A stretch of DNA of 36,481 bases from Chloroflexota bacterium (lineage in GTDB: Bacteria > Chloroflexota > Limnocylindria > QHBO01). The stretch covers positions 1 to 36,481 of the forward strand of contig JBBDNI010000007.1 in assembly GCA_040877645.1 (NCBI GenBank). Reading direction: 5' to 3'. Each line of letters starts with the position of its first letter. Within the stretch, counting starts at the first letter, position 1. Positions 2,275 through 31,851 of this stretch are shown piece by piece. The position numbers were made by a program, and so were the translations under genes. Below the pieces are notes generated by a model. The model searched no databases and had not been told where the DNA came from. It saw nothing but the letters and a program-made list of their open reading frames with translations.

Positions 2275-2874
2275 GTGATGCCAATACTGTTGGCCATGAA
2301 CGCAGCTCAGAAGAAGCGCGCGGTCGATGCGGCAGAGGACCAGATCGATCGCATGCTGGCGGTCTGGGTGCGCGAGATCCCAGGCCTCGATCGCCTGACG
2401 GAGGGCATCGTCGAGCGCATAGGCAACCTGTCTCGGTACTTCGACCATTCCATGGAAACGACCCTGGCCGAGTTCGGGCTCGACCGCAGGACGCACCGTG
2501 TCCTCGCTCGGCTCCGATACCAGGGACCGCCGTACCGCCTGTCGGCGGGTCAGCTGGCCGAGGGGATGGGCCTCTCGAGCGGGGCCATGACCAACCGGCT
2601 CGATCGCCTCGAGGCCGCCGGCCTGGTGCGGCGCCTCCCCGATCCCGATGATCGACGCGGCGTGCTGGTCGAGCCGACCAAGGCCGGCCACGCGGCCTGG
2701 GATCGGGCGACCGATACGCAGGCGGGCCGCGAGGCGCTCATCGCGTCAGCGCTCACCGAGGAGGAGAAGGACGAGCTTCACTCTCTGCTGCGCCGGCTGA
2801 TGCGCGCCTTCCCCGAGGAGGTCCGCGAGGGGGCCAAGCGGCGGAAGATGCAAGAGCACGCCACCCCGGACTAG
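2275..2874 (+). CDS. MarR-family transcriptional regulator
   Basis: Winged-helix segment LSAGQLAEGMGLSSGAMTNRLDRLEAAGLVRRLPDPDDRRGVLVEPTKAG is typical of MarR. Start is GTG 2275 or ATG 2278. Confidence 0.9.
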   Translation: MMPILLAMNAAQKKRAVDAAEDQIDRMLAVWVREIPGLDRLTEGIVERIGNLSRYFDHSMETTLAEFGLDRRTHRVLARLRYQGPPYRLSAGQLAEGMGLSSGAMTNRLDRLEAAGLVRRLPDPDDRRGVLVEPTKAGHAAWDRATDTQAGREALIASALTEEEKDELHSLLRRLMRAFPEEVREGAKRRKMQEHATPD

Positions 2875-3356
2875 GTCTCGACGAACTCCGCCCAGCGCAG
2901 GTTCACGATCACCACGTCGAACGCGGTCGCGCTCGAGCCATCGGCGCGCATCACCGTCGCGGTGGTGAGCGGCAGGTACGGTTGCGTGGAGCGCAGGTAG
3001 ACGTCGCGCTCGAGCCCCGGTCGCAGGTGGGCGGTGCCGGTGATCCGATAGGCCCCGATGTTCAGCGTCACCTCCTGCCGGTCACGAGGCTGTTTGTGCT
3101 CAGGCGGGCTCTCGTGCGGCGGCGGCACGATGAAGAGCGTCTTGACCGTCGGCAGCAGGACCCATGCCGCTTCGCGGTCGCGGTCCGCGCCCTCCGGCAG
3201 GAACGAAAGCTCGTCGTGGTGCTGCAGGATGTCGGTCAGGCGCTGGCCCTCGGTCGACACCGATCCGGCAAAGACGCCGTCGTCGGTGTAGATCCGGATC
3301 GGCTCGAGCGGCGGTTGGGGCGTCGGTTCGGGGCCCTTTGCGAATGGCCAGCGCAT
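2871..3356 (-). CDS. hypothetical protein (161 aa), last gene of the kinase/oxidase operon
   Basis: ATG 3356 is preceded by GGAGA with a 6-nt spacer. It lies 36 nt downstream of the oxidase gene on the same strand. Good GC3 bias. Its stop overlaps the MarR stop (CTAG). No family recognised. Confidence 0.7.
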   Translation of the reverse strand: MRWPFAKGPEPTPQPPLEPIRIYTDDGVFAGSVSTEGQRLTDILQHHDELSFLPEGADRDREAAWVLLPTVKTLFIVPPPHESPPEHKQPRDRQEVTLNIGAYRITGTAHLRPGLERDVYLRSTQPYLPLTTATVMRADGSSATAFDVVIVNLRWAEFVET

Positions 3357-3392: not shown

Positions 3393-5840
3393 TCAGGCGC
3401 GGATTCGGTCTCCCGCGGGGTCGAAGAGCGGCTCCGCGTTGACCGTCCAGCCGACCCATTCCCCGAAGATCTCCACCTCCCCGGTCTGGCCCACGGCGGC
3501 CAGCGCCGGTGGCAGATAGGCAAAGGCGATCGAGCGCTGCACGGTGAATCCGTAGCCGCCGGAGGTGACCCTGCCGACGATCTCGCCGTTGACCCGCACC
3601 GGTTCATTGCCAAGCGCAACGGAGCGCGGATCGTCGATCACCATGCAGGCCAGGCGCTTGCGTGGCCCGGCCTCCTTCGCTGCGATCAGCGCATCGCGGC
3701 CGATGAAATCGGTCTCCTTGGTGAGCCGCACGGCGAACCCCAGCCCCGCCTCGAACGGCGTTTCCTCCGGCGTGATGTCGCTCGACCAGACGCGGTAGCC
3801 CTTCTCCAGGCGCAGGCTGTCGATGGCCCGATAGCCCCCGGCCAACAGCCCCAGCGGGCGGCCCGCCTCCCACAGCGTGTCCCACAGCTGCGCGCCATAT
3901 TCCGCCGGGCAGTAGAGCTCCCAGCCCAGCTCGCCGACGTAGGTGACCCGCAGCGCGGTGACCGGCACGTGCCCGACCGTGATCGGCCTGGTGGTCAGGT
4001 ACGGGAAGGCCTCGTTGCCGACGTCGTCCGTGGTGGTCGAGGCGAGGATCTGGCGGGCCACCGGTCCCCACAGGCCCAGGCAGGCCACTGACGAGGTGAT
4101 GTCATTGACCGTCACGCTGCCATCGTCCGGCGCGTGGCGGCGGATCCAGCCCAGGTCATGGTTGCCGAAAGCGGTCCCGGTGACGATGAAGAAGCGCCCC
4201 TCCTCCAGCCGGGTGACGGTGAAGTCGCACTCGATCCCGCCGCGGCGGTTGAGCATTTGGGTGTAGGTGATCCTGCCGACCGGGCGATCCATCTCGTTGT
4301 CGCACAGGCGCTGCAGGAGGGCCAGCGCGCCGGCCCCGGTGATCTCGATCTTGGCGAAGCTGGTCTCGTCGAAGAGGGCGGCTGCATAGCGGGTGGCCAG
4401 CGCCTCGGCGCCGATCGCCGGCGACCAGTGCTGCCCCGCCCAGCCGCGCGGCCGGAGCGACTCGTCGCCCGCCGCTTCGTTCGACTCGAACCAGTTCGGC
4501 CGCTCCCAGCCTGACTTCTCGCCGAAGGCGCAGCCGAGCGCCGCCAGCCGCGAGTAAGCGGGGGAGAGGCGCAGCGGCCGCGCCGACTGGCGCTCCTCGT
4601 TCGGGTAGTGGATGTCGTAGTAGGTGGCGTAGTTCTCGGTCGCGCGGGCCAGGGTGTAGGAGCGCGATCGGTACTGCGACCCGAAGCGACGGGTGTCCAT
4701 CTTCCACAGGTCCAGCTCCGGTTCGCCGTCGACGATCCAGTGCGCCAACTGGCGACCCATCCCCCCGGCGCCGGCGATGCCGTGGGCGCTGAAGCCGGCC
4801 GCCACGAAGAAGCCACGCACCGCCGACTCGCCCAGGATGAACTCGTTGTCGGGGGTGAACCCCTCCGGCCCGTTGATCAGCTGCTTGATGCCGGCGTCGT
4901 GCATGGCCGGCACCCGGCGGACGGCGCCGGCGCTGATCTCCTCGAAGCGCGGCCAGTCCGGGGGCAGCAGCTTGCCGTTGAAGTCGGCCGGGATGCCGTC
5001 GAGCGACCAGGCCAGCGGGTTGCGCTCGTAGCCACCCATCACCAGGCCGCGCACCTCGGGACGGAAGTACACCAGGTTGTCCGGATCGCGCAACTGGGGC
5101 AGGTCCGGGGTCACGCCGTCGATCGGCTCGCTGACCAGGTACTGGTGCGCGAAGGGGATGATCGGGACCGTGACCCCCGCCATGCGACCGATCTCCGGCG
5201 CGAACATGCCGGCCGCGTTGACCACCACCTCGGCCACGATCTCGCCGCGGTCCGTGGTCACGCCGGTGACGCGCCCGCGCTCGACGCCGATGCCGGTCAC
5301 CCGTGTCCGGGGCAAAATGGTCGCCCCGTGACTCCGGGCCCCGGCCGCCAGGGCCTGGGTCAGTCCGCTGGGATCGAGGTAGCCGTCGGTCGGCAGCCAG
5401 GCCGCGCCGCGCACGCCATCGGTGACCATCAGCGGGAAGAGCTGCTGCGCCTCATCGGCGCTGATCAGCTCCATCGGCAGCCCATAGGCCTTGGCCCAAC
5501 CGGCCTGGCGGCGCAGCTCCTCCATCCGCTCGTCGGATGCTGCCAGGCGCAGCGAGCCGACCTCGCGCCAGCCGGGGTCGACCCCGGTCTCGGCGGCCAA
5601 TGCGCGGTAGGTGGCGACGCTGTCGACCATCATCCGCGTCAGCGTCGGGCTTGAGCGCAGCTGTCCCACCAGCCCGGCCGAGTGGAAGGTCGAGCCGCTG
5701 GTCAGCTCGGACCGATCGAGCAGCACGACATCGGTCCAGCCCAGGGCCGTCAGGTGGTAGGCCAGGGCGGCGCCGCCCACGCCGCCGCCGATGATCACGC
5801 AGCGCGTGTGTTGCGGCAGCGCCGAGGCGCGGTCAGCCAC
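3393..5840 (-). CDS. FAD-dependent oxidoreductase fused to GcvT-type folate-binding aminomethyltransferase domain (dimethylglycine/sarcosine oxidase- or dehydrogenase-like), paralogue 1
   Basis: N-terminal dinucleotide fold VIIGGGVGGAALAYHL; TSGSTFHSAGL with His at the position used for covalent FAD in this family. C-terminal GcvT-like motifs YVGELGWELY and LRLEKGYR. The GTG start at 5840 overlaps the upstream kinase stop by 8 nt. Confidence 0.9.
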   Translation of the reverse strand: MADRASALPQHTRCVIIGGGVGGAALAYHLTALGWTDVVLLDRSELTSGSTFHSAGLVGQLRSSPTLTRMMVDSVATYRALAAETGVDPGWREVGSLRLAASDERMEELRRQAGWAKAYGLPMELISADEAQQLFPLMVTDGVRGAAWLPTDGYLDPSGLTQALAAGARSHGATILPRTRVTGIGVERGRVTGVTTDRGEIVAEVVVNAAGMFAPEIGRMAGVTVPIIPFAHQYLVSEPIDGVTPDLPQLRDPDNLVYFRPEVRGLVMGGYERNPLAWSLDGIPADFNGKLLPPDWPRFEEISAGAVRRVPAMHDAGIKQLINGPEGFTPDNEFILGESAVRGFFVAAGFSAHGIAGAGGMGRQLAHWIVDGEPELDLWKMDTRRFGSQYRSRSYTLARATENYATYYDIHYPNEERQSARPLRLSPAYSRLAALGCAFGEKSGWERPNWFESNEAAGDESLRPRGWAGQHWSPAIGAEALATRYAAALFDETSFAKIEITGAGALALLQRLCDNEMDRPVGRITYTQMLNRRGGIECDFTVTRLEEGRFFIVTGTAFGNHDLGWIRRHAPDDGSVTVNDITSSVACLGLWGPVARQILASTTTDDVGNEAFPYLTTRPITVGHVPVTALRVTYVGELGWELYCPAEYGAQLWDTLWEAGRPLGLLAGGYRAIDSLRLEKGYRVWSSDITPEETPFEAGLGFAVRLTKETDFIGRDALIAAKEAGPRKRLACMVIDDPRSVALGNEPVRVNGEIVGRVTSGGYGFTVQRSIAFAYLPPALAAVGQTGEVEIFGEWVGWTVNAEPLFDPAGDRIRA

Positions 5841-6768
5841 GCGCCGCCTCGCGCAGCTGCTCGTCGAAGGCGGGGCCGGACGCGTTGTGCAGGAGCCGCT
5901 CGAAGTGCTCGTCCGTGTAGGCCACGAAGTCGACGTCGAGCGTGCTGATCCCCTGCTGCAGGACGCCCCACATCGCCTCGCGGAAGTCGGAGACGACCCG
6001 CATCAGGGCCAGGCGCGCCAGCCGGGGGGGCCGAACCTCACCCTCGTACGCCTCCAGCAGGATCGCATCCTGGTCCGGGTCAAGCTCATGGTTGACGCTG
6101 AAGTTGCCCAGGTCGAAGAAGGGGTCGCCCATCCCCGCGTACTCCCAATCGACGATCCGGATCCGTTCGCCATCGTCGATGAAGTTGGCGTTGAGCAGGT
6201 CGTTGTGGCACGGGCGCAGGTGGATCGGCGCGTCGAGAAGCGCCCGCTCGATCCGACGGCCGGCGGCGTGGGCCTCGTCCCAGGCGGAAGGGCGAGGGAC
6301 ACCGCGCGAACTGGCCAGCGCCGCGTAGGCCTCCACGATCCGCAGCGGCACGAAGAGGCCCGGGATGGCCGGGCCGCCGTGGATGCGACGGATCGAGTCG
6401 GCCACGCGGCGCAGCATCTCCGGCCGGCGCACCTGCTCGCGGCTGACCGGCTCGCCCACGATGAACCGGGTGACCAGGTAGCCCTCTGGTCGGATGAAGG
6501 CGGTCACCTCCGGCCCGATCCCGACGCCCGCCGCGGCGACCGTGGCCGCGTGCTCGACCTCGCGACTGATGCCGAGTAGGTAGGTGTCGTTCCCCGCCAG
6601 GCGGATCACGTAGCGCTCGGCGCTCCCCGCGAGCGCGATCAGATAGTTGCGGTTGGTGATGCCGCCCGACAGCGTCGTCAGCGTCAGTTCGCGGCCGGCC
6701 GTCTCCGGGACGCGCTGCAGCGCCGCGACCAGCTGGTCGCGCAGCTCGCCCTGCGGCGCTTCATCCAC
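5833..6768 (-). CDS. choline/ethanolamine-kinase-like phosphotransferase (LicA/APH fold), paralogue 1
   Basis: Brenner motif CHNDLLNANF and choline-kinase motif IVDWEYAGMGDPFFDLGN. The tracked ORF runs to GTG 6813, which would overlap the upstream gene by 44 nt. GTG 6768 sits 1 nt after that gene's TAG and 9 nt after GAGG, so I prefer it. Confidence 0.85.
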   Translation of the reverse strand: MDEAPQGELRDQLVAALQRVPETAGRELTLTTLSGGITNRNYLIALAGSAERYVIRLAGNDTYLLGISREVEHAATVAAAGVGIGPEVTAFIRPEGYLVTRFIVGEPVSREQVRRPEMLRRVADSIRRIHGGPAIPGLFVPLRIVEAYAALASSRGVPRPSAWDEAHAAGRRIERALLDAPIHLRPCHNDLLNANFIDDGERIRIVDWEYAGMGDPFFDLGNFSVNHELDPDQDAILLEAYEGEVRPPRLARLALMRVVSDFREAMWGVLQQGISTLDVDFVAYTDEHFERLLHNASGPAFDEQLREAARG

Positions 6769-6769
6769 C

Positions 6770-7555
6770 CTAGCGGACCTCGTCGACGTCGGTCCACCAC
6801 TTGACACGCTCACCGACTCGAGACCGCGCGCGCCATCTGAACGATTTCGGCTCCGCCTCTAGGCGGGTGACAAGTTCCCGCACCTGGCCGATCACCCGCT
6901 CTCGGGCGGGCTGGTCGAGCTGCGGGTAGGTGAGGGCGAGCGCCGAGACCTTCTCCAGGTTCAAGGTGGTGGTCCGCCACAGGCCCCAATCCGCCGCGCA
7001 CAGCCCCGCCACTCGCCCGACGTCGATCGACCCGTCGTCGCGATCGGCCAACTCGTGCTCGAGCAGCAACAGGATCACGTCCACGACGTCCTTCTGGTTG
7101 ATCTTGACGATCTGGAGCTTGGAGAGCAGGAGCTCGGCGAGCGGGATCGTCGGCCGGTCGTATTCGAGACGTCGGTCGAGCGGAATCCGGTGGCAGAACT
7201 CGAGGCGGTCGTAGAAGACGTCGATATGGATCCCGTTGCCGGGATGGTCATAGACGCCGCGTCGCCCCTCCGAGGTCATTTCCACCTCTCGGTCCTCGAC
7301 GTAGCCGACCGATGCCAGGAAGCTCGACACAGTCCCCGCGTCGCGCTGGTACCCGGCGAAGTCGATGTCCGCATAGGTTCGCTCGAAGGCGGGCAGCAAT
7401 GCCGCCGAGGTTGGGCAGTGGAGCGCCACACCAACGGACCCCAGGACGCGCAGCGGTACCCCTCGATCGTCCAACGCGTCGGTGATGCGGGCGATCTCGG
7501 CCTCCAGCACGGATCGCGCGATGCTCTTCGCTGATTCCGCTGGACGTGTCGGCAT
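6770..7555 (-). CDS. putative Pol-beta-superfamily nucleotidyltransferase-fold protein, first gene of the operon
   Basis: LGSVGVAL ... RTYADIDFAGY resembles the G[GS]-x(n)-DxD signature of minimal nucleotidyltransferases. ATG 7555 has GAGG 6 nt upstream; the alternative ATG 7585 has no SD. The functional call is tentative. Confidence 0.6.
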   Translation of the reverse strand: MPTRPAESAKSIARSVLEAEIARITDALDDRGVPLRVLGSVGVALHCPTSAALLPAFERTYADIDFAGYQRDAGTVSSFLASVGYVEDREVEMTSEGRRGVYDHPGNGIHIDVFYDRLEFCHRIPLDRRLEYDRPTIPLAELLLSKLQIVKINQKDVVDVILLLLEHELADRDDGSIDVGRVAGLCAADWGLWRTTTLNLEKVSALALTYPQLDQPARERVIGQVRELVTRLEAEPKSFRWRARSRVGERVKWWTDVDEVR

Positions 7556-7716
7556 TGGTGGCCTCAGGGCGGCACAGGCGCGCATTGTACGGACTGGGGT
7601 CAGGGTGTCGTCCGAGGTATGGCTTGTGCCGGCATCGGTCCAGGGTTGCGGCCGATGCGCAGCCCACCGTAGGGTGGCACCGGCGCAAAACGGCGTCTGG
7701 TTTCAGCGGGAGTGGC

Positions 7717-10161
7717 ATGGTCGAACAGGCGCGCGTGGTCGTCATCGGCGGCGGCATCGCTGGGGTGAGCGTCGCTTTCCACCTCGCGCGCTCCGGCTGG
7801 CGGGAGATCATGCTGGTCGAGAAGGGGGCGCTGACCAGCGGGTCGACGAGCCAGGCGGCGGGCCTCGTGACCGCGTTCAACGCCTCCGCGACGATGATGT
7901 CCTTCCGTCGCTACAGCATCGACCTGTATCGCGAGCTGGGCGTCTTCGAAACGGTCGGCAGCCTGAGAATCGCATCCAGCCCCGAGCAATGGCGCGACCT
8001 CCAGCGCGGCGTCAGCCGTGCGCACGGCATCGGTCTTGACGCAGAGCTGCTGAGCCCGGAGGAGACGCGCAGCCGCTTGCCCGTCGTGTCGCCCGATGAG
8101 CTCCACGGGTCGGTATGGCTGCAGGGTGATGGCCATCTGGACCCGCATAGCGCGACGCATGCCGTGGCTGCGGCCGCGCGTGAGCTCGGAGTCACCATTC
8201 GCACGGGTGAGCGTGTCATCGCCATCGAGCTGGGCAACCGCGCAGAGGTTCGCGCCGTTGTCACGGAGCACGGCCGGATCGTCTGTGAGCACGTGGTGAA
8301 CGCAGCGGGCATGTGGGCGCCACGCGTCGCCGCGATGGCCGGAGGCTGGCTGGCGAGCACCCCGGTCGACCACCAGCATGTCGCCCTCCGAGCGGTCGCC
8401 GGGCATGAGTTCAGCCCCGACTCCCCGTGCTTCCGCGACCCGGACAACCTGGTGTACGGCAAGGAAGAGCACGGTGGCATCCTGCTTGGGGGATACGAGG
8501 CTGAGCCCTATGCCCGATGGACGGACGGTGTGCCCTGGGAGCACGGGTCCCGCTCGCTGCCGCCGGATTGGACGCGCTTCGAACCGCTCCTCGCAGGGGC
8601 GATCCGCCGTTTCCCGTTCCTGGCCGATGCCGAGGCGCTGCGGCTCATCAACCACCCCGACGCGATGACACCCGACGCGAACCCGCTCCTGGGCCCGATG
8701 CCGGAGGTCAAAGGAGTATGGGTCGCGGCGGGTCTCTCGCTCAATGGCTTCGGTGCCGCGGGCGGAATGGGGCTGGCGCTGGCCGGCTGGATGACCGCCG
8801 ACGATCCGGGCGTCGACGTGCATGCGTACCGGCCGTGGCGCTTCGGAGCCACGTACCGCGACCCGCGGTACGTGGCCGAGACCGCCCGGGAGGCCTATCG
8901 CTACTACTACCGCCTCCGCTATCCGTACGACACCGACACGGCCGGGCGTCCCCGGCGGCTGAGCCCACTCCACGGCCGTCTGCAGGACGCCGGCGCGATC
9001 TTCGGGACGAAGCACGGCTGGGAGCGAGCCGACCACCACGAACCAGGCGGATCATGGCGGATGGCAGGGGAGGATCAGCGCGCGTACGGCTGGTCTCGAC
9101 CGCCGTGGCTCGATGCGGTGGGGGAGGAACATCGTGCCGTTCGGGAGCGGGTGGGCCTGATCGACCTGACCTCGTTCGGAAAGATCGAGGTCTCCGGCGC
9201 TGGGGCACTCGCGCTTTTGCAGCGTGTCTCGACCGCCGATCTCGACCGCCCCATTGGATCGGTGGTCTACACCCAGTGGCTCGACAGCCAGGGCGGCATG
9301 GTGGCGGATGTCACCGTCGTCCGACTAGCGGGCGACCGATTCCGGGTCGTGACCGGGGCCGGGTACGCAGCCAGCGATCTCGGCTGGCTACGGCTTCACC
9401 GGGAGGACGGCGAATCGGTCGCGTTGGGGGACGCCAGTGACGAGCTCGCGTGCATAGGGCTGTGGGGACCAAGGGCCCGCGACGTCCTGGGCGCGGTCAC
9501 GGACGATGACGTGAGCAACGCGGGCCTCCCGATCAGGACGGCGAGCCTGCTCCGGGTCGGCGCCGGCGAGGTGCTTGCGCAGCGCATCTCCTACGCCGGG
9601 GAGCTCGGCTGGGAGCTGTATGTCGAGCCGGCGTGGGCGGTCCAGCTGTGGGACCGGCTCGCATCGGCTGGGCGGGAGCATGGAGTCGCCGTCTTCGGGT
9701 ATCGGGCCCTCGACAGCCTCAGGATGGAGAAGGGCTACCGCTACTACGGGACCGACCTGACGATGCGGGAGACGCCCCTTGAGGCGGGGATGTCCCGGTT
9801 CGTCGCCTGGGAGAAGCCCGACTTCGTGGGGAGAGCGCCGCTCGTGGAGCGACGCGAGGCCGGGCCGCCGGCTATTCGGCTGCGGAGCGTGACCATCACC
9901 GACCCGGCCTCTGGCGCATCGGACGCAGATTGGCTTCCCGTCTACGGAGGAGAGGCGGTGCGCGTCGGCGGCGAGGTGGTCGGTCGGCTGCGCAGCGTCG
10001 CGTACGGACACTCATTGCGCCGCATGCTCGGCTACGTGTATCTTCCGACCGACCTTGCGCTGGGGGACGAGGTCGAGATCGAGGTTTTTGGGCGGACCGC
10101 TCGCGGGACGGTCTCCCCCGACGCCCTGGTCGATCCCGGTGGTGAGCGGATGCGCGCATAG
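7717..10161 (+). CDS. FAD-dependent oxidoreductase + GcvT-type domain (dimethylglycine/sarcosine oxidase-like), paralogue 2
   Basis: ATG 7717 is preceded by GGGAG. VVVIGGGIAGVSVAFHL; TSGSTSQAAGL (Gln where paralogue 1 has His). C-terminal YAGELGWELY and LRMEKGYR. The 57 codons upstream in the tracked ORF (from GTG 7546) are Arg/Gly-rich junk. Confidence 0.9.
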   Translation: MVEQARVVVIGGGIAGVSVAFHLARSGWREIMLVEKGALTSGSTSQAAGLVTAFNASATMMSFRRYSIDLYRELGVFETVGSLRIASSPEQWRDLQRGVSRAHGIGLDAELLSPEETRSRLPVVSPDELHGSVWLQGDGHLDPHSATHAVAAAARELGVTIRTGERVIAIELGNRAEVRAVVTEHGRIVCEHVVNAAGMWAPRVAAMAGGWLASTPVDHQHVALRAVAGHEFSPDSPCFRDPDNLVYGKEEHGGILLGGYEAEPYARWTDGVPWEHGSRSLPPDWTRFEPLLAGAIRRFPFLADAEALRLINHPDAMTPDANPLLGPMPEVKGVWVAAGLSLNGFGAAGGMGLALAGWMTADDPGVDVHAYRPWRFGATYRDPRYVAETAREAYRYYYRLRYPYDTDTAGRPRRLSPLHGRLQDAGAIFGTKHGWERADHHEPGGSWRMAGEDQRAYGWSRPPWLDAVGEEHRAVRERVGLIDLTSFGKIEVSGAGALALLQRVSTADLDRPIGSVVYTQWLDSQGGMVADVTVVRLAGDRFRVVTGAGYAASDLGWLRLHREDGESVALGDASDELACIGLWGPRARDVLGAVTDDDVSNAGLPIRTASLLRVGAGEVLAQRISYAGELGWELYVEPAWAVQLWDRLASAGREHGVAVFGYRALDSLRMEKGYRYYGTDLTMRETPLEAGMSRFVAWEKPDFVGRAPLVERREAGPPAIRLRSVTITDPASGASDADWLPVYGGEAVRVGGEVVGRLRSVAYGHSLRRMLGYVYLPTDLALGDEVEIEVFGRTARGTVSPDALVDPGGERMRA

Positions 10162-10172
10162 GCCAGGAGTCG

Positions 10173-11171
10173 ATGGTGCCCCTCTTCGGCGATCGGTCCC
10201 CGGGGAAGAAAACGACGGTCTTCTACGCAACCGATGTCCATGGTTCCGAGCGGACCTGGCGAAAGTTCCTATCTGCCGCCAGCTTCTACCATGCCGATGT
10301 CCTGGTGATGGGCGGCGATGTGATGGGGAAGCTTGCGATCCCCGTCATCCGGGAGCCGAGCGGTCACCACCGGGCGACGATCCATGGGCGCGTGGAGCGG
10401 CTCGAGACGCTCGCGGAGGTTGAGCGCGCCCGTGAGCTGATCCGCTCGCTCGGCTTCTACGACATCGTCATGGACGAGGACCAATACCTCGCGGTGCGTG
10501 ACGACCCGGCCGCGATCGACGAGCTGTGGCGCCGCCTGGCCGTCGAGCGGCTGGCGCGCTGGATCGAGCTGGCCGAGGATCGGCTTGGACCTTCGGGCAT
10601 CCAGTGCTTCGTGTCCGGCGGTAACGACGACTTGCTGGAGGTGATGGAGACGCTGCCATCCGAGGGGACGCGCTCCTTCGTGGCCTGCGAAAGCCGCGTC
10701 GTCCCGCTTGACGACGACCACGTCATGGTCAGCCTGCCCTACGTCAACCCGACCCCCTGGCAGACGCCGAGAGAGGCCCCGGAGGAGGAGCTAGCCGCGA
10801 TGATCGACCAAGGCGTGGCGGGGATCACCGACTTCGGGAAAGTGATCTTCAACTTCCATGCGCCGCCGGTCAGCTCAACCCTCGACACCTGCATCATGCT
10901 CGACGCGACGACCGATCCGCCGTCGCAGGTCGTCCGTGGCGGGCAGCCGGTCATGTATGGAGCCGGAAGCACCGCGGTGCGTGCTGCCGTCGAGCGCTAC
11001 CAGCCATTGCTCGGACTTCACGGCCACATCCACGAGTCCCAGGCCGCAGCGCGGCTTGGTCGAACCCTGTGCATCAACCCCGGCAGCGAGTACGGTGAGG
11101 GGGTGCTGCGGGGGACGTTGATCAGCCTCTCCAAGGGCAAGGTGGAGAGCTACCAGATGACGGCTGGATGA
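10173..11171 (+). CDS. calcineurin-like metallophosphoesterase
   Basis: Motif series DVHG, VMGGDVMGK, SGGNDD, GLHGHIHES. AGGAG lies 4 nt before ATG 10173. Only 11 nt separate it from the oxidase stop. Confidence 0.85.
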   Translation: MVPLFGDRSPGKKTTVFYATDVHGSERTWRKFLSAASFYHADVLVMGGDVMGKLAIPVIREPSGHHRATIHGRVERLETLAEVERARELIRSLGFYDIVMDEDQYLAVRDDPAAIDELWRRLAVERLARWIELAEDRLGPSGIQCFVSGGNDDLLEVMETLPSEGTRSFVACESRVVPLDDDHVMVSLPYVNPTPWQTPREAPEEELAAMIDQGVAGITDFGKVIFNFHAPPVSSTLDTCIMLDATTDPPSQVVRGGQPVMYGAGSTAVRAAVERYQPLLGLHGHIHESQAAARLGRTLCINPGSEYGEGVLRGTLISLSKGKVESYQMTAG

Positions 11172-11314
11172 ACGACGCCCCGCCCAAGGGGTGGTGCAGG
11201 TCAGGCGAAGAAAGAGAGGTGCGATCCGAGAGGCGATCACGGCGGCCAGACTGACCGTCGAAGGGCGTGTGCGCCGATGCGCGATCATTGACAGCAATAC
11301 GGGAGGTGGATAGG

Positions 11315-12967
11315 GTGGCGACACAGGCGATCCCCGCCGCGGCTACGCCAGAGATCTTCGTTCGGAAGTCATCCGGCCTGGTCCGCGTGATGTCCCCATC
11401 GTCGGCGTTTGTGTACAACGTGCTGACGATGGGCCTGATCTTTCCCTGGACCTATCTCTGGGCGCCGGGAGCGCTGCCCGGAGGACGGTTGGTCGAGGGG
11501 ATCCTCCTGGCGATGATCTTGGAGATTCCGATCGCCCTCTCCTACGTCTGGCTCTCAACCGCCTTCCCCCGAACCGGCGGTGACTACGTCTTCCAGAGCC
11601 GTGTCTTCGGGGGCGGTCTGGCTTTCACGGTCGTCTTCTCGGGCTTCGTGATCTGGATCCTGCAGTGGGTGGCCCTCTCTGGTTGGCTGCTCGCAACGCT
11701 CGGCTTCGCACCGCTCTTCCTGGGGCTTGGCGCCTCGCTAAAGAACGCGGGCATGGTCGACGTGGCGGCCTGGTTCACGACGCCGACGGGGATCATCGTG
11801 ACGAGCATCGCCAATGCCGGGATCGCCCTGGTGATCCTGGCCTCCGGGTTCCGCAACTACGTCCGCGTTCAGCGGGTGATGTGGATCGCCATCCTCCTTT
11901 CGTTTGGGACGATGCTCTTCGTCTTGGCAACCACCAGCCCGGGTGTGGTGCCAGGGCGGCTCGACGCCTTCTCGGCGGCGATCGGGGGGTCGTCATCCTT
12001 CACGGCCGATGCGATCAGCGCGGCGCAGGGTGCCGGCATCGATCTCAACCCGCCGTTCAGCCTGCTCGCGACGCTCCTGATCGCGCCGATCGCGTGGACG
12101 TCGCTGCAGTGGGCTACCTATTCGAGCCAGCAGAATGGCGAGATCAAGTCGGCGGGCTCATTCCGGAACCAGGCGTTCATCATCGTTGGTGCGCTGGTGT
12201 TGACCGGCCTGCTTCTGGCACTGCTGGCCTTCGTGCTCGAAGGCGCTGTGGGGTCCCAGTTCCTCTATGTCGCCGGCTCCGGGTACTGGAGCGGCGTCTC
12301 CGAGGCGTCGTTGGCAGGTTCCTACCTGTGGCCGAACATCCTGGCGACAGCGATCGCGTTCAACCCGCTCGTCACCCTGCTGATCGCTGCCGGGTTCATC
12401 CTCAACGGGCACCAGATCGTCCACAACTGCTACATCGGCATGACGCGGGTGATGGTCGCCATGTCGTTCGATCGGCTGCTCCCCGAGTGGGTCAGCCGCG
12501 TGAGTGATCGGTTCCACACGCCCGTGAATGCCCACGTCGTGTACTTCGTCGCAAGCATTCCGGTGATCTGGCTGTACAACAGCTTCTCGTATGGCGACTC
12601 GACCTGGACGTCGTTGACCCTCGGCGTGACGTTCGCGTGCGGATACGTGTTCGTGGCCACGGCACTCGCCGGGGCGTTGCTCCCGTACCGGGCCAAGGCG
12701 GCCTACGATGCGTCCCCGGGCGCGAAGTACACGCTCGGCGGCCTGCCGCTGGTGACGATCATCGGCCTGCTGGGGTCAGCAGCCGGCGTCGTCTTCCTGT
12801 ACCTGTTCATCACCAACGCCCAGCTGGGGCTGACCACGCAGCTCGCCAACACCGTCGTGGGCGGTGTCCTGCTCTTCTCCGCGGCCTGGTACCTGATCGC
12901 AAAGCAGGTCCGCCGCAGCCGCGGCATCGACGTCTCGTTCGCCTTCAAGGAGATCCCGCCCGAGTGA
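11315..12967 (+). CDS. APC-superfamily permease
   Basis: About 12 TM helices, with FPRTGGDYVFQSR typical of APC transporters. GTG 11315 is preceded by GGGAGG with an 8-nt spacer; the tracked ORF starts at GTG 11267. Confidence 0.85.
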   Translation: MATQAIPAAATPEIFVRKSSGLVRVMSPSSAFVYNVLTMGLIFPWTYLWAPGALPGGRLVEGILLAMILEIPIALSYVWLSTAFPRTGGDYVFQSRVFGGGLAFTVVFSGFVIWILQWVALSGWLLATLGFAPLFLGLGASLKNAGMVDVAAWFTTPTGIIVTSIANAGIALVILASGFRNYVRVQRVMWIAILLSFGTMLFVLATTSPGVVPGRLDAFSAAIGGSSSFTADAISAAQGAGIDLNPPFSLLATLLIAPIAWTSLQWATYSSQQNGEIKSAGSFRNQAFIIVGALVLTGLLLALLAFVLEGAVGSQFLYVAGSGYWSGVSEASLAGSYLWPNILATAIAFNPLVTLLIAAGFILNGHQIVHNCYIGMTRVMVAMSFDRLLPEWVSRVSDRFHTPVNAHVVYFVASIPVIWLYNSFSYGDSTWTSLTLGVTFACGYVFVATALAGALLPYRAKAAYDASPGAKYTLGGLPLVTIIGLLGSAAGVVFLYLFITNAQLGLTTQLANTVVGGVLLFSAAWYLIAKQVRRSRGIDVSFAFKEIPPE

Positions 12968-13011
12968 TCGTTGGTCGTCAGCTCCATGCAAAGCCCGGCC
13001 CCCCCCCCGGC

Positions 13012-13914
13012 TCACGTCCGCACGTCGCGCAGCCAGCGCGCGAGCTCGTCCGAGTCGAGGCCGGCGGCCGCGCGGGCCCAGCGCTCCTCGGCCCAAGCAT
13101 GGAAGTCGAAGTCGATCGTCGAGATCCGCGCCTGGATCGCTGCCCAGAGCGTCCACCCCACGTCGGACATGATCATGTTCAGGTGCATCCTCGCCAGCAG
13201 AGCCGGGGACGCCTCGCCGAAATAGGCCGCGCACAACGACCCGACCCGCGCGTCATCCCAGCCCAGCTCCTGGCACGTATTGCCGAGTTCGAAGGTTGGA
13301 TCGCCGTTGCCGCTGTACTCGTAGTCGACGATCCGCAGATCCGTGCCGTTGTCGAGGTAGTTCTCAGCCAGCAGGTCGTTATGGCAGGGCACTACCGGCA
13401 GGGGCCTGGCGCGCAGAGCGCCCTCGAGCTCCGGCAGCTGCTCGAGACGCTCCCGGTAGCCCGCCGGGATGGGGATCCTGCGCGCCTCCACGGCGCGCAC
13501 GTATCGCTCCGTCAAGCGGAACATGTTGAAGTCGTGGAGGAAGCGTGGACCGGCGTGGAGCCGCCGCAGGGACGCGGCCACGCGCGCGGCCATGCCACTC
13601 TCGGCAAACGTCTCGTTCGTCATCGCACGCCCGCCGATCCATTCAAGCACGATCACGCCGTGCTGGGGCAGCGCGTGGACGACGCGGGCGCCGATCCCCG
13701 TCTCCGCCGCGGCTCGGGTGTTGTGCAATTCGTTCGTTCGGTCGATCGCGAGGATGCTCGTGTCGGCGCCGGGGACGCGGACGAACATCCGCTCGCCGTC
13801 GACCGTGACCGCGTAGTTCATATTGGTCAAACCAGCGAGTACCGGCTCAATCTCGACGGTCCGCCCACGCCAGGCGTCGATCGCATGCACCACTTGCTCG
13901 ATCCCAATCGCCAT
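13012..13914 (-). CDS. choline/ethanolamine-kinase-like phosphotransferase, paralogue 2
   Basis: CHNDLLAENY and IVDYEYSGNGDPTFELGN. ATG 13914 is preceded by GGAAGGAGGG with a 4-nt spacer; the tracked ORF extends 20 codons further, to 13974. Confidence 0.85.
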   Translation of the reverse strand: MAIGIEQVVHAIDAWRGRTVEIEPVLAGLTNMNYAVTVDGERMFVRVPGADTSILAIDRTNELHNTRAAAETGIGARVVHALPQHGVIVLEWIGGRAMTNETFAESGMAARVAASLRRLHAGPRFLHDFNMFRLTERYVRAVEARRIPIPAGYRERLEQLPELEGALRARPLPVVPCHNDLLAENYLDNGTDLRIVDYEYSGNGDPTFELGNTCQELGWDDARVGSLCAAYFGEASPALLARMHLNMIMSDVGWTLWAAIQARISTIDFDFHAWAEERWARAAAGLDSDELARWLRDVRT

Positions 13915-14125: not shown

Positions 14126-15598
14126 CTAGCCCATGTCCGTGGAATCGGCCCGAGCGTCCTCCCGGATATTCTCCGTCGGTCGAGCGATGAGCAGATAGGC
14201 AAGGCCCAGCAGAAACACCACCCCGGCGCTGATCGGGACGAGCCACCGATCGACGAAGGATTCGAGGCCCTCGCCTGTCTTGAACGACAGGATCACGATG
14301 GCCGATACGCCGTACACCAAGCCGACCACGTTGACCGGCCAGCCCCAGCCACCGAGGTTGAACGACCCGCTCGGCCGCCAGCCACGCGCTCGAGCGATGA
14401 TCGAGGCCAGGACCACGCTCTGGAAGCCGATGTAGATGCCGACAACGGCGAAGGTGATGATGATCGTCACCGTGGCCGACGGCAGGAGGGTGATCAGGGA
14501 GGGGACGATCACGGCCACCAGCACCGCCCCGGGGGGCATGTGCCAGCGCGGGTGCACGCTCGACAGGGCCCGTGATCCGACCACCATCCCGTCGCGCGCG
14601 AACGAGTAGACGAGGCGGATCGCCGCACCCTGGATGGCGATCGTGCAGGAGACGAAGGCAAACAGGATCAGCGCCAGCGCGATCGTGGTTCCGGCATCGC
14701 CGAAGTTCGCCAGCAGGATCGAATCGATGGGCGACGCATCGGCACCGCTCATGACGGCCCCGATGTCCGGCACGGCCAGGATCAGGGCGATCGCCAGGAA
14801 GAACGAGGTCGCGCCGCCGACGGCCAGCGTCAGCTGCATGGCGCGCGGCACCTTGCGTGATGGGTCGTGGACCTCCTCGGCGATGTCGCCGCACGCTTCG
14901 AAGCCGTAGAAGATCCAGACGCTGAAGAGCGCGGCGGCCAGGAAGGCGCCGAGGTAGTCCCCGCCCCCGGCCCCCATGGTGTCGAAGATGACGCCGAAAT
15001 CCTGGTTGCGATCGAAGAGCAGCAGGTAGGCGCCCAGTCCCAGGGTGCCCGCAATCTCGACGACCAGGCCGGCGCGCGCAAGGAGCGCGAGGCGACGAAT
15101 GCCGAGCATGTTCAGGATGCCGCCGAGGACGATGACGGCCACGGCCACAAGCACCGTGCTCAGCGGCGTGTTCTCCCAGCCGAACAGCGGCGCCGCGAAC
15201 AGGTTGGCCGCGTAGGCCACTGCTGCAACAGTGATGAGCAATGCCACCGTGTACATCCAACCCGACATGAACGCGTAGCGCGGGCCTACCAGGCGCTTCG
15301 ACCATTGGTAGATGCCGCCCGCGAGCGGGAACTGCGATGCAATCTCAGAGAAGGTGAAGACGACCATGAACTGGCCGAAGACCACGATGGGCACCGACCA
15401 GATGAACGCCGGACCGCCGGTGGCCAGTCCGAAGGCAAACAGGGAGTAGACCCCCACCACCGGGGACAGGTAGGTGAACCCCACCGCAAAGTTCGATAAG
15501 AGCCCAATGGATCGGCTCAGTTGCTGGCGATAACCCAGGCTCGCGAGCTGACGTTCGTCAGCCCCGACCTCGGCGACGGCCGGTGACGCGGATGCCAT
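14126..15598 (-). CDS. APC-superfamily permease, amino acid/choline transporter (ACT)-like
   Basis: ATG 15598 is preceded by GGAGGAGAG with a 6-nt spacer. N-terminus LGYRQQLSRSIGLLSNFAVGFTYLS and FPLAGGIYQW. It forms the C-terminal 491 aa of the artefactual 702-aa tracked ORF. Confidence 0.9.
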   Translation of the reverse strand: MASASPAVAEVGADERQLASLGYRQQLSRSIGLLSNFAVGFTYLSPVVGVYSLFAFGLATGGPAFIWSVPIVVFGQFMVVFTFSEIASQFPLAGGIYQWSKRLVGPRYAFMSGWMYTVALLITVAAVAYAANLFAAPLFGWENTPLSTVLVAVAVIVLGGILNMLGIRRLALLARAGLVVEIAGTLGLGAYLLLFDRNQDFGVIFDTMGAGGGDYLGAFLAAALFSVWIFYGFEACGDIAEEVHDPSRKVPRAMQLTLAVGGATSFFLAIALILAVPDIGAVMSGADASPIDSILLANFGDAGTTIALALILFAFVSCTIAIQGAAIRLVYSFARDGMVVGSRALSSVHPRWHMPPGAVLVAVIVPSLITLLPSATVTIIITFAVVGIYIGFQSVVLASIIARARGWRPSGSFNLGGWGWPVNVVGLVYGVSAIVILSFKTGEGLESFVDRWLVPISAGVVFLLGLAYLLIARPTENIREDARADSTDMG

Positions 15599-15690
15599 GA
15601 GAGTCTCTCCTCCGAATCTGCTGGAGATTCCTGGTCCGCACGGATCGGGCATGCAGCACTTTGGGCGACCGATCGGCCGGGCTGGGCGGC

Positions 15691-15720
15691 AGCATAGGAG
15701 CGCCCCACATGACCCGTCAA
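15691..15720 (-). promoter_or_regulatory. candidate promoter TTGACG-18 nt-TATGCT for the permease/kinase transcription unit
   Basis: Minus strand: -35 TTGACG (15720..15715, overlapping the Nudix stop codon), -10 TATGCT (15696..15691), about 90 nt upstream of ATG 15598. Confidence 0.35.
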
Positions 15721-16234
15721 CGACTTTTTTCGTGGCCCTCCGGCGACGGCCCGATCCGGTAGAGGTGCGCGTGCTCGGGGCGCTCGAGCAGGTCGGCCGA
15801 CATCCGCTGCAGCGCCGCGCGCTGGGGCTCGTATGGGACAAGGCGCACCGCCTCTGCGAGCGACCCCCATCGCCACTCGTCGTGCTCCTCTGAGAGCTGC
15901 GGCACGGCATCCGCCGCCACCCGAGCGGCAACGGCACGATCGCTTCGACCGTGCCGCGCTTCCACGCGTACAAGTCGAAGACGGCATTCACCGTGTAAAG
16001 CTCGATGGCTTCCAGCCCCGTCTCCTCGCGCAGTTCGCGCTGCGCGGCGAGATGCGGAGCCTCGCCCGCCTCGATCCAGCCGGAGACGCCCTGCCAGAAG
16101 GGTGACCCATCGCGACCGGACCGATGCAGCAGCAGGAACTCGGACCTGCCGTCGAGCACGCGATATGGCCACACATCCACACCGGTCACCCGGTGCGCGG
16201 GCCAGCCCTCGGCCCGCGTCTTCGAATCGGTCAC
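15717..16234 (-). pseudogene. NudB-like Nudix hydrolase (dihydroneopterin-triphosphate pyrophosphatase-like) interrupted by a 1-nt frameshift
   Basis: The N-terminal part, with a complete Nudix box GWIEAGEAPHLAAQRELREETGL, is in the frame of GTG 16234. The C-terminal part (AVAARVAADAVPQLSEEHDEWRWGSLAEAVRLVPYEPQRAALQRM, stop 15717) is in the -1 frame. The switch lies around 15925..15950. Confidence 0.7.
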
Positions 16235-16271
16235 GCCGCCGATTGTAAGAGGGGCCCCGTATCATCGGTCT

Positions 16272-17021
16272 ATGAGCGATCGACCGCGGATCGTGGTCAC
16301 GCTGCACGGCCCTGAGCAGGCCGCGCGCGAGGAGCCGACCTGGGCCTCGTTCGACGGCTACCTCGACGCGGTGCGACGAGCGGGCGGAGATCCGGTTGCT
16401 CTCGATCCGACGGCGACCCAGGGTGAGCGCGCGGCGGCGCTGGCCACCATGGACGGCCTCCTCCTGCCGGGTGGCGCCGACCTTGACCCGGCCCTCTACG
16501 GGGAGGAGCCCCATCCGGCGGTGGCCGTGGAGGGAGCGCGCGACGACCTGGAGCTGGCGGCCTGGTCGGCCGCTCGAGCGCGCGGCGTCCCCATCTTCGG
16601 CGTGTGCCGCGGCTTCCAGGCGATCAACGTCTTCTCCGGTGGAACGCTGGTTCAGCACCTGGAGGGCCACGACAGCCCCACCCAAGCACCGAAGGCACAT
16701 CTGCTCCACCTCGACCCGGCCTCGCGGCTGGCGGCGATCCTGGGAGAGGCGGACCCCCTGCTTGGCACCGAGGTGAACAGCTACCACCACCAGGCGGTGC
16801 GGCCCGCCGACCTGGCTCCGGGGCTGGTGGCCTCCGGCATTGCGCCGCATGACGACGGTGAGCTGGTGGAGGCGCTCGAGGCGGCCGACGCCGCTGACTG
16901 GCTGCTGGGGGTCCAGTTCCACCCGGAGCGGCCCGAGTTCATCGGTCCCGAGTTCGCCCGCCTGTGGCGCGCCTTCGTCGACGCCGCGCGGGTCAGGTCA
17001 GGTCGACGAAGACGTTCTTGA
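16272..17021 (+). CDS. class-I glutamine amidotransferase-like gamma-glutamyl amide hydrolase (PuuD / peptidase C26-like)
   Basis: Catalytic-triad context GVCRGFQAINVF, YHHQAV, GVQFHPE. ATG 16272 (MSDRPRIVVTLHG); upstream codons of the tracked ORF overlap the Nudix gene. The 3' end overlaps the convergent ALDH gene by 29 nt. Confidence 0.85.
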   Translation: MSDRPRIVVTLHGPEQAAREEPTWASFDGYLDAVRRAGGDPVALDPTATQGERAAALATMDGLLLPGGADLDPALYGEEPHPAVAVEGARDDLELAAWSAARARGVPIFGVCRGFQAINVFSGGTLVQHLEGHDSPTQAPKAHLLHLDPASRLAAILGEADPLLGTEVNSYHHQAVRPADLAPGLVASGIAPHDDGELVEALEAADAADWLLGVQFHPERPEFIGPEFARLWRAFVDAARVRSGRRRRS

Positions 17022-18465: not shown

Positions 18466-18474
18466 GGCGTGATT

Positions 18475-19866: not shown

Positions 19867-19917
19867 CGAGCGATGCTAGAGCCTCACGGCCATTCCGTGC
19901 GCGCTCGCGCGATTCCC

Positions 19918-20688
19918 TCAGGCGCAGGCGATCGGTGGGTCGCTGCGCGGCCACAGCTCGACGCGGTCGGGACCCACCACGTAGACGGCCCGGCCGTCAG
20001 GCACGAACCACAGCTCGAGGTCGCCGCTCCGATAGCCGCTCGCCGTCGCGTCGTCGGGGAGCGCCGCATCGCCGTTGTACGGCTCGTGCAGCGTGCCGCG
20101 CGGCATGATGCCCAGCGGGTCACCGATGTACTGGCGCACCTCGGGTCTGTCAGCAATGTGCAGCAGGCGGGCCTGCTGCCAGCCGCAGTGCTCGGCACCG
20201 GGAAAGTCGCGCAGGATCAGCCCGGCGTCATCGGTCCATACCCGGTCGCCGGTGGCGAAGACAGCAGTGGCCCCGAACTCGGCCCCGGGGCAGGCGCGCA
20301 GCTCGTCGAGCGTGAAGACGCCCTCGCCGGGGATCGTGTGGGCCGTCGAGAAGACGGCCACCACCTTGATCCTGTCCGCGTTGCGATACACGAAGGTGGC
20401 GCGATCGGCGGCCACCGCGAACGGCTCCCAGTTGTTGATCGGCACCACGAAGGCGGGAGCCTTGAGCCAGCTGGCGAGCGCCGCCGCCGGCGAGTCACCG
20501 AGGCTGACGATTCCGAACGGACCGATGCCGCCCATCTCCGACGGAGCGCCATCGCAGTCGAGCAGGTCGAGCGGCGCGGGGATCAGGCTCGCCTCGGAGC
20601 TCGCGTCCTGGCTCGGCGACTGATCGACCGCTGCGCAGGCGCTGACCACGAGCAGGCAAGCCAGCATGAGGGGTCGGGGTGGACGCAT
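19918..20688 (-). CDS. putative lipoprotein of unknown function
   Basis: Signal peptide with lipobox: MRPPRPLMLACLLVVSAC-AAV. Good GC3 bias. Lies 20 nt downstream of the SDR gene. No family recognised. Confidence 0.7.
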   Translation of the reverse strand: MRPPRPLMLACLLVVSACAAVDQSPSQDASSEASLIPAPLDLLDCDGAPSEMGGIGPFGIVSLGDSPAAALASWLKAPAFVVPINNWEPFAVAADRATFVYRNADRIKVVAVFSTAHTIPGEGVFTLDELRACPGAEFGATAVFATGDRVWTDDAGLILRDFPGAEHCGWQQARLLHIADRPEVRQYIGDPLGIMPRGTLHEPYNGDAALPDDATASGYRSGDLELWFVPDGRAVYVVGPDRVELWPRSDPPIACA

Positions 20689-20708
20689 ATGCGCCAGACG
20701 CCGTGATC

Positions 20709-22861: not shown

Positions 22862-22893
22862 GTTCCGTTCTCGCCTTTCGTTGTTTACAGACC

Positions 22894-22926: not shown

Positions 22927-22945
22927 GTTGCAATCTACAGGTTGG

Positions 22946-31820: not shown

Positions 31821-31851
31821 CGGCGCGGGGGGCGGCAGGCGAGGGCCGGGG

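Follow-up and report, generated by a model that had tools for sequence, protein, structure and literature searches.

A conserved kinase-oxidase gene pair in Limnocylindria and other bacteria, and a possible demethylation route through phosphorylated N-methylethanolamines

In a 36,481-nt contig of a Chloroflexota bacterium (GTDB lineage Limnocylindria, QHBO01; GenBank assembly GCA_040877645.1, contig JBBDNI010000007.1, positions 1 to 36,481 of the forward strand, hereafter referred to as the window), two gene modules between positions 3,393 and 13,914 each combine a choline/ethanolamine-kinase-like protein (Kin1 and Kin2 respectively) with a protein fusing an FAD-dependent DAO-type amine oxidase to a folate-binding GcvT part (Ox1 and Ox2 respectively). 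The adjacency of such kinase and oxidase genes is conserved over about six lineages (five or more phyla), cultured strains included. We tentatively propose that this cross-phylum oxidase subfamily, annotated as “dimethylglycine/sarcosine dehydrogenase-like”, may consist of phospho-base demethylases that would form an undescribed catabolic route together with the linked kinase and phosphatase, a proposal to which we give rather less than an even chance. The route would convert N-methylethanolamines via their phospho-bases to phosphoethanolamine and then ethanolamine, i.e., it would be the oxidative mirror of the phosphoethanolamine N-methyltransferase (PEAMT) pathway. It is the pathway arrangement that would be new, as the component enzymes belong to known families.

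Gene organization of the two modules

The G+C content of the window is 64-73% when calculated over 2-kb intervals, and its genes were called via codon-position GC and verified with Pfam and NCBIfam profiles. The genes of the two modules are the following:

6770..7555, minus strand: p271, first gene of module 1 (261 aa), weak NTP_transf_5 match
5833..6768, minus strand: Kin1, Choline_kinase (70.6 bits) and APH (72.9 bits)
3393..5840, minus strand: Ox1 (815 aa), Pfam domains DAO, FAO_M, GCV_T, and GCV_T_C
7717..10161, plus strand: Ox2, domains DAO, FAO_M, GCV_T, and GCV_T_C; longest open reading frame (ORF) from 7546
10173..11171, plus strand: metallophosphoesterase, assigned by motifs and predicted fold
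11267..12967, plus strand: APC-family permease, AA_permease_2
13012..13914, minus strand: Kin2, Choline_kinase (85.3 bits) and APH
14126..16234, minus strand: NUDIX hydrolase and APC permease in a single ORF upstream of Kin2, NUDIX and AA_permease_2

In module 1, the p271 stop is separated from the GTG start of Kin1 by 1 nt, and the TGA stop of Kin1 overlaps the GTG start of Ox1 by 8 nt (GTGGCTGA), with a GAGG 6-7 nt upstream. Module 1 is therefore an operon consisting of p271, Kin1, Ox1, and possibly a 161-aa gene downstream of Ox1. In module 2, 11 nt that include AGGAG separate the TAG stop of Ox2 from the ATG of the metallophosphoesterase gene, and Kin2 is convergent to the Ox2-metallophosphoesterase-permease unit across a gap of 44 nt. 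A preliminary description of this stretch had already listed two full-length DAO+GcvT proteins, two choline/ethanolamine-kinase-like proteins, the overlap between Kin1 and Ox1, the succession of Ox2, metallophosphoesterase and permease, and the convergent placement of Kin2 downstream of a second permease. The profile searches and the junctions themselves agree with it on every one of these points, with the four Pfam domains found in each oxidase and the metallophosphoesterase recognized by its motifs and predicted fold, its Pfam score being under the cut-off (Metallophos_2, E=5e-4).

The motifs of this metallophosphoesterase are invariant in its family (D21xH23, G48D49, G150N151 of GNxD, H229, and G284H285xH287), and the source databases label the family as metallophosphoesterase or Icc-related. 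The best Foldseek matches of its AlphaFold2 (AF2) model (predicted local distance difference test score, pLDDT, 77) are 2yvt, 1uf3, SbcD, and purple acid phosphatase, the top two, 2yvt and 1uf3, with E = 1e-7 to 1e-10. By these features it is a calcineurin-like enzyme, and we propose that it would serve as the phospho-base phosphatase of module 2.

p271 belongs to a family with a length of 261 aa and invariant G39-S40 and D63xD65. Judged by its AF2 model (pLDDT 88), whose best Foldseek matches are MenT1 (a toxin), LnuA, and ANT(2'')-Ia, it is predicted to be a protein of the Pol-beta-type nucleotidyltransferase fold with an intact GS...DxD signature. p271 travels with the kinase and oxidase genes in Limnocylindria and Anaerolineales. 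Its presence and that of the NUDIX gene may indicate that the pathway also handles the base in nucleotide-linked forms. A LicA/LicC-type surface decoration function was considered and rejected: no LicC or LicD domains are found beside either kinase, and the fold of p271 is MenT/ANT-like rather than LicC-type.

The NUDIX/APC permease ORF is uninterrupted in the window (702 aa), while a related locus (L001 in the survey described below) has separate genes of 172 aa and 542 aa respectively, located directly upstream of its Kin1 ortholog. The ORF in the window is either a real fusion or reflects the mere absence of an in-frame stop.

Conservation of the pairing and the two enzyme families

We scanned one genome per GTDB species and found 80 related loci, referred to by L numbers. 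Gene calls in these loci, made with a codon-position GC score, are still imperfect at high G+C, and all counts were thus taken from tblastn searches with the window proteins. Among the 52 loci whose Kin1-like kinase gene has flanks of at least 3.5 kb on either side, 50 contain a DAO-GcvT gene at a distance of up to 3 kb, and the oxidase is at 3.9 kb and 5.0 kb in the remaining two. The kinase-oxidase pairs are on the same strand in 61 cases and on opposite strands in eight, with a median gap of 163 nt. The loci fall into eight taxonomic groups and are from Limnocylindria, Anaerolineales, other Chloroflexota, Gaiellaceae, other Actinomycetes, Dormibacterota, and Acidobacteriota. Such a pairing is far beyond chance, and the adjacency on which the preliminary description had made its idea depend is thus not confined to this genome.

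Pairs in cultured strains were found by tblastn over annotated plasmids and replicons. Ruegeria sp. THAF33 has, in this order, a DeoR regulator, an OpuAC-type ABC transporter, the kinase, an 814-aa DAO-GcvT protein, and an inositol-monophosphatase-like (IMPase) gene. In Shinella sp. HZN7, an RpiR regulator and a glutamine synthetase (GS)-like gene are followed by DeoR, an OpuAC-type ABC transporter, kinase, and oxidase, and the order in Nitratireductor sp. OM-1 is DeoR, kinase, oxidase, and EutH. Labrenzia contains the kinase followed by the oxidase. In Nonomuraea gerenzanensis, a Kin2-like kinase and an Ox1-type oxidase (62% identity to Ox1) are divergently oriented. The orthologs carry the locus tags FIU92_RS18715, RS18720, and RS18725 in Ruegeria sp. 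THAF33, shn_RS23645 and RS23650 in Shinella sp. HZN7, and DEJ54_RS22025 and RS22020 in Nitratireductor sp. OM-1.

The arrangement of module 2 is kept in relatives as well. The APC permease following the metallophosphoesterase is present in L007, L012, L015, L036, L065, L079, L090, and L091, and relatives also retain the convergent position of Kin2 after that permease; the entire unit (Ox2, metallophosphoesterase, and permease, flanked by Kin2 in convergent and p271 in divergent orientation) is found repeatedly in Limnocylindria and Anaerolineales.

Ox1 and Ox2 are 44% identical over their full length, and all four Pfam domains of both score far above the cut-offs. In identity comparisons with characterized enzymes, the linked oxidases form two orthologous groups of their own. 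Ox1-type proteins are 47-87% identical to Ox1, with 54-87% in the GTDB loci and 47-50% in the Alphaproteobacteria, the latter being 32-36% identical to dimethylglycine oxidase (DMGO) and dimethylglycine dehydrogenase (DMGDH). Ox2-type proteins are 51-77% identical to Ox2 and found only in Limnocylindria and Anaerolineales. Ox1 keeps the DMGO residues H48, H225, Y259, D552, Y651, and E658. Three of these (H225, Y259, and D552) do not vary in either Ox family, and Y651 and E658 are each retained in all but one member per family. Based on the conserved H225/Y259 dyad and the folate-site residues, tetrahydrofolate-coupled oxidative N-demethylation of a secondary or tertiary amine is to be expected; quaternary amines such as choline and phosphocholine are not oxidizable by this flavoprotein chemistry. 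The FAD-binding histidine (His48 in DMGO, forming the 8-alpha-N-histidyl link) is present in DMGDH and Ox1 and in 52 of 53 Ox1-type proteins. In Ox2 and six of eight Ox2-type proteins it is replaced by Gln, suggesting that Ox2 probably holds its FAD non-covalently.

Such conservation would also be seen in an ordinary betaine branch, in which Ox1 and Ox2 would be dimethylglycine/sarcosine oxidases or dehydrogenases and the kinases, e.g., choline kinases, would be linked only physically. The best PDB matches of the oxidases are indeed DMGO and DMGDH (~560 bits), their catalytic and folate residues are all conserved, the OpuAC-type transporters in some relatives could carry dimethylglycine or betaine, and the identity of Ox1 to these enzymes (40% to DMGO and 37% to rat DMGDH) is not below that between the dimethylglycine enzymes themselves (29% for DMGO versus DMGDH). 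However, a merely physical link would not have persisted over at least five phyla, in 50 of 52 loci, and with overlapping or near-abutting genes, and it would leave the recurrent phosphatase and ethanolamine pathway genes unexplained. The sequences differ too: R180, R309, K442, and R549 (Ox1 numbering) are invariant in both Ox families and absent from the dimethylglycine enzymes, and His364 shared by DMGO and DMGDH is a Gly in both families. Further, none of choline dehydrogenase/oxidase, betA/betB, betaine demethylase, Sox subunits, purU, folD, and glyA is among the genes of the window, and betaine-cluster genes are likewise not among the recurrent neighbors in related loci. We thus regard a betaine branch as improbable, albeit compatible with the oxidase sequences by themselves.

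The two kinases are 36% identical to each other, and both score well above the Pfam Choline_kinase cut-off of 29 bits. Kin1 has a 311-aa ortholog, 99% identical, from a Chloroflexota metagenome-assembled genome (MAG), and its family comprises 444 representatives (E<1e-30 in a library clustered at 50% identity). In an alignment of 61 diverse members, H188, D190, N195, and D207 are invariant and W208-E209-Y210 nearly so, and the HxDxxxxN and DxEY motifs are thus present. The nearest solved relatives of Kin1 are PDB 3dxq (141 bits) and LicA 4r77 (76 bits). The best-scoring named family of both kinases is the GntI-like NF041256, with 294.6 bits for Kin1 and 197.3 bits for Kin2; both are below the cut-off of 357, and an identity with the GntI equivalog was therefore rejected. 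Some Kin1-like kinases form fusion proteins with EutH, an APC permease, or a HAD hydrolase. The substrates of LicA-type choline/ethanolamine kinases are small amino alcohols, which these enzymes phosphorylate at the hydroxyl group. We propose that Kin1, as a member of the choline/ethanolamine-kinase family, may be an N-methylethanolamine kinase and that Ox1, an FAD amine oxidase/dehydrogenase with a GcvT folate domain, may be a phospho-N-methylethanolamine demethylase.

A possible pathway and the genes linked to it

In the proposed pathway, the APC permease would take up the base, and Kin1 or Kin2 would phosphorylate its hydroxyl group. Ox1 or Ox2 would then oxidize the N-methyl C-N bond of the phospho-base and transfer the one-carbon unit to tetrahydrofolate in the GcvT domain, yielding 5,10-methylene-tetrahydrofolate and the demethylated phospho-base. 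A phosphatase (the metallophosphoesterase after Ox2 in the window, a HisN-like IMPase after Ox1 in most relatives) would free ethanolamine, which a gamma-glutamylation route consisting of a GS-like ligase, a short-chain dehydrogenase (SDR), an aldehyde dehydrogenase, and a C26 hydrolase would convert to glycine and glutamate. We infer the identity of the substrate, the order of the steps, and the division of labor between modules 1 and 2 from gene content and gene order, and consider the chance that a kinase, an oxidase acting on the phosphoester, and a phosphatase work in this sequence on N-methylethanolamines to be just short of even. The same sequence of kinase, oxidase, and phosphatase had been suggested in the preliminary description, and the genomic context (a second phosphatase type, transporters, DeoR regulators, and the ethanolamine pathway) argues for it.

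The linked phosphatases provide the main argument for a phosphorylated oxidase substrate. A HisN-like IMPase gene directly follows the Ox1-type gene in 18 GTDB loci (16 in Limnocylindria, one in other Chloroflexota, and one in Dormibacterota), with a gap of no more than 100 nt in 15 of the 18, and it is also found in Ruegeria and in L091 (a CSP1-4-like contig, where the order is Ox1, IMPase, kinase). This IMPase and the metallophosphoesterase of module 2 are non-homologous phosphatases. A kinase and a phosphatase in one operon would be futile unless an intermediate step needs the phosphoester, which suggests that the oxidase acts on the phosphoester. To our knowledge, every characterized DAO-GcvT enzyme (DMGO, DMGDH, SARDH, and MabO) uses a substrate with an anionic group, and phosphate would give an amino alcohol that anionic charge.

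Alternatively, the oxidase substrate may be a free base or a carboxylate, with the kinase step following the oxidation or running beside it; for example, Ox may demethylate N-methylethanolamine, and the kinase may trap the resulting ethanolamine as phosphoethanolamine for lipids or for a phospho-lyase. The kinase-transporter fusions would suit such an uptake-and-trap function, the kinase family includes true ethanolamine and choline kinases, and a class III aminotransferase is encoded nearby in Dormibacterota and some Limnocylindria. However, a phosphatase encoded right after the oxidase would reverse the trapping, and a free amino alcohol lacks the anionic group used by all the characterized enzymes. 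The class III enzyme of Dormibacterota was also considered as an ethanolamine-phosphate phospho-lyase and rejected, as the model whose cut-off it passes is the gamma-aminobutyrate (GABA)-transaminase equivalog, which is not a phospho-lyase model. Altogether, we find oxidation of a free base or carboxylate quite unlikely.

For the phosphoester pathway, transporters and regulators provide hints to the substrate. The linked transporters include APC permeases, OpuAC-type ABC transporters (Ruegeria and Shinella), and EutH (Nitratireductor), and DeoR/GlpR-type regulators, which usually respond to phosphorylated intermediates, flank the alphaproteobacterial modules. An ethanolamine skeleton is indicated by the kinds of transporter, the fusions to EutH, the linkage to EutBC described below, and the ethanolamine pathway, and a methylated amino head group would agree with the OpuAC binding proteins and with the relatedness of the kinases to GntI. 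The most likely substrates would thus be N,N-dimethyl- and N-methylethanolamine. Both are intermediates of choline metabolism and the head groups of phosphatidyl-dimethylethanolamine (PDME) and phosphatidyl-monomethylethanolamine (PMME) respectively. Each of the two methylation states may have its own module, or the modules may act on different amino alcohols.

A complete gamma-glutamyl (ethanolamine-type) catabolic set adjoins the Kin2 side of the modules (16005..24703):

16005-17021, plus strand: Peptidase_C26 hydrolase
16993-18465, minus strand: aldehyde dehydrogenase, Aldedh
18475-19866, minus strand: membrane alkaline-phosphatase-superfamily protein
19918-20688, minus strand: lipoprotein
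20709-21476, minus strand: SDR
21476-22933, minus strand: GS-like gamma-glutamylase (ligase), Gln-synt_C
22946-24703, minus strand: APC permease

By its gene content, with the ligase, SDR, Aldedh, and C26 genes all located between 16005 and 22933, the set is predicted to be an ethanolamine utilization pathway. GS-like, SDR, aldehyde dehydrogenase, and C26 genes are contiguous with the kinase-oxidase genes in the window, in L001 and L003, and in Gaiellaceae/Actinomycetes.

Several minor features of this set were observed. The Peptidase_C26 gene, if taken at its longest ORF (338 aa), runs into the NUDIX ORF; relatives have 249 aa and the domain begins at residue 117, and the true start is therefore probably near 16270. 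The product of 18475-19866, kept in L001 and L003, spans the membrane several times and has a weak match to a sulfatase/alkaline-phosphatase-superfamily domain; it could be a head-group-releasing or -transferring enzyme of the EptA/LtaS type. The 256-aa product of 19918-20688 has a lipobox, is without a family match, and is absent from L001.

A related gene cluster without an oxidase is present in A. tumefaciens pAt2 (L086, NZ_CP048524.1), in the order of ABC transporter, DeoR, M20 hydrolase, two kinases, phosphatase, EutB, and EutC. Its kinases are APH/choline-kinase-like phosphotransferases and its phosphatase is HisN-like, which suggests a family of “phosphorylated intermediate” routes ending in ethanolamine.

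The genes downstream of the kinase and oxidase differ in other lineages. In Anaerolineales (L057, L061, L062, L065, and L079), the operon consists of p271, a CBS-domain protein, kinase, Ox1-type oxidase, a class II fructose-bisphosphate-type aldolase, and a HisC-like aminotransferase, and the latter two could act on a phospho-amino-alcohol. In ~20 Limnocylindria loci (L007-L048), the permease-kinase-oxidase genes are preceded, at ~1-3 kb from the kinase, by genes for a DUF2269 membrane protein and a divergent class II aldolase-like protein of 469 aa (F_bP_aldolase, E=4e-11).

The same enzymatic logic may therefore apply to another N-methylated hydroxy-amine, such as N-methyl aminopropanol, N-methylserinol, another aminopolyol, or a xenobiotic alkanolamine, with modules 1 and 2 acting on different compounds instead of a single compound in its di- and monomethyl stages. 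In favor of this, a separate permease and kinase are found in each module, the Anaerolineales aldolase and HisC-like aminotransferase would suit a 2-amino-polyol 1-phosphate, a divergent aldolase-like gene lies upstream in Limnocylindria, and the downstream amine pathways vary among phyla. On the other hand, the fusions and linkage to EutH, EutBC beside a related kinase, and the recurrent gamma-glutamyl-ethanolamide set indicate an ethanolamine skeleton, and the scores of the aldolase and the HisC-like protein are near the cut-offs of housekeeping equivalogs. A substrate other than an ethanolamine thus appears rather unlikely to us, albeit worth considering.

Several observations weigh against the proposed N-methylethanolamine pathway. 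DMGO and DMGDH act on the same substrate in spite of their 29% identity, so that the distance of Ox1 and Ox2 from them is by itself no argument for a new substrate. No phosphatase gene follows Ox1 in the window, and the HisN-like IMPase of the relatives (241 bits versus a cut-off of 275) is maybe a housekeeping enzyme and not a pathway member. OpuAC-type binding proteins would equally suit choline or dimethylglycine. The neighbors in Dormibacterota (a GABA-type transaminase, an aldehyde dehydrogenase, and a Pot-like ABC transporter) are not an ethanolamine pathway, and the Anaerolineales aldolase and HisC-like aminotransferase fall just under the housekeeping equivalog cut-offs. The role of p271 is not explained by the proposed scheme. 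Finally, all 80 GTDB loci are from MAGs, and in a sequencing-run search the window sequence was found in four runs, all of DNA and from a single 2024 sediment-metagenome study, and in no RNA runs.

Relation to described systems and other genes in the window

DMGO of A. globiformis (PDB 1pj5) and mitochondrial DMGDH (4pab and 5l46) have the same four-domain architecture as Ox1 and Ox2. In contrast to them, the Ox1- and Ox2-type proteins, only 32-40% identical to these enzymes, are tied to a kinase and have no betaine-pathway genes nearby. A precedent from the DAO family (PF01266) is provided by PbfC and PbfD, which act specifically on N-methyl-2-aminoethylphosphonate and not on sarcosine (PMC10590968); enzymes of this family can thus recognize a phosph(on)ate where others recognize a carboxylate. 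Unlike Ox1 and Ox2, they lack a GcvT domain, and they cleave the ethyl C-N bond to give phosphonoacetaldehyde and methylamine, whereas Ox1 and Ox2 would pass the methyl group to folate. As their substrate is a phosphonate, a kinase and a phosphatase are unneeded.

Kin1 and Kin2 share the fold and catalytic motifs of LicA/choline and ethanolamine kinases (PF01633; 4r77 and 3dxq), with Kin1 closer to the uncharacterized 3dxq than to LicA. LicA supplies phosphocholine to LicC/LicD for surface decoration, and such genes are not adjacent here. GntI, the pre-guanitoxin N-hydroxy kinase, has a substrate with a dimethylamino group near the phosphorylated oxygen; however, it is biosynthetic and phosphorylates an N-OH, and the other gnt genes are not present in this window.

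N-methyl chemistry in the PEAMT route of plants, nematodes, and Plasmodium likewise takes place on phospho-bases and involves the same three compounds, and the proposed module would be the reverse of that route. Unlike this module, the route is biosynthetic, S-adenosylmethionine-dependent, and eukaryotic. Gamma-glutamylethanolamide pathways have been described in S. coelicolor with GlnA4 (PMC6529630) and in Phaeobacter MED193 (PMC10132767). The enzyme set of the described pathways (GS-like ligase, SDR dehydrogenase, aldehyde dehydrogenase, and C26-type amidohydrolase) is as in the window, but they start at free ethanolamine and do not include a kinase or a DAO-GcvT oxidase. In a targeted full-text literature search, no description of catabolic phospho-base demethylation or of a kinase-linked DMGDH-like enzyme was found, and searches on phospho-base names and N-methylethanolamine catabolism returned only PEAMT biosynthesis and anaerobic corrinoid demethylation.

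DMGDH-like genes routinely serve as markers of glycine-betaine degradation in metagenomes. If the proposed pathway is correct, the kinase-linked subfamily would bias such counts, chiefly in soils rich in Limnocylindria, Gaiellales, and Dormibacterota. Phosphorylated N-methyl amino alcohols would then be a new substrate class of a well-studied flavoenzyme family, and the pathway would be a new one for methylated phospholipid head groups (from PMME, PDME, and, after partial demethylation, phosphatidylcholine). It would provide methylene-tetrahydrofolate and a nitrogen source to uncultured soil Limnocylindria, Gaiellales, and Dormibacterota, as well as to marine and soil Alphaproteobacteria. As the module is present in cultured Ruegeria, Shinella, Nitratireductor, Labrenzia, and Nonomuraea, the hypothesis is directly testable.

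Two genes lie beyond the Ox1 end of module 1:

2275..2874, plus strand: MarR-family regulator (Pfam MarR/MarR_2), convergent with module 1
2871..3356, minus strand: 161-aa protein downstream of Ox1, weak DUF6812 match

The MarR-family gene is a candidate regulator, and its homologue, 85-86% identical, is located directly beyond Ox1 in L001 and L003. Membership of the 161-aa gene in the module is uncertain; it is not kept beside Ox1 in relatives, which have the HisN-like IMPase or the MarR gene there instead.

Outside the island of the two modules and the gamma-glutamyl set, the region 27648-35542 contains housekeeping genes, including those encoding an HtrA-like protease, a PASTA Ser/Thr kinase, and a nucleotidyltransferase. 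A dihydropteroate synthase gene (29623-30906) overlaps that of a FolC-like Mur ligase (30474-31820); these folate-synthesis genes, though near a folate-dependent module, are probably unrelated to it. In 24887-26412, ribosomal protein L25 is encoded on the minus strand and an OmpR-type response regulator on the plus strand. Their longest ORFs share ~160 nt at the 5' ends, and the true starts must therefore be further in.

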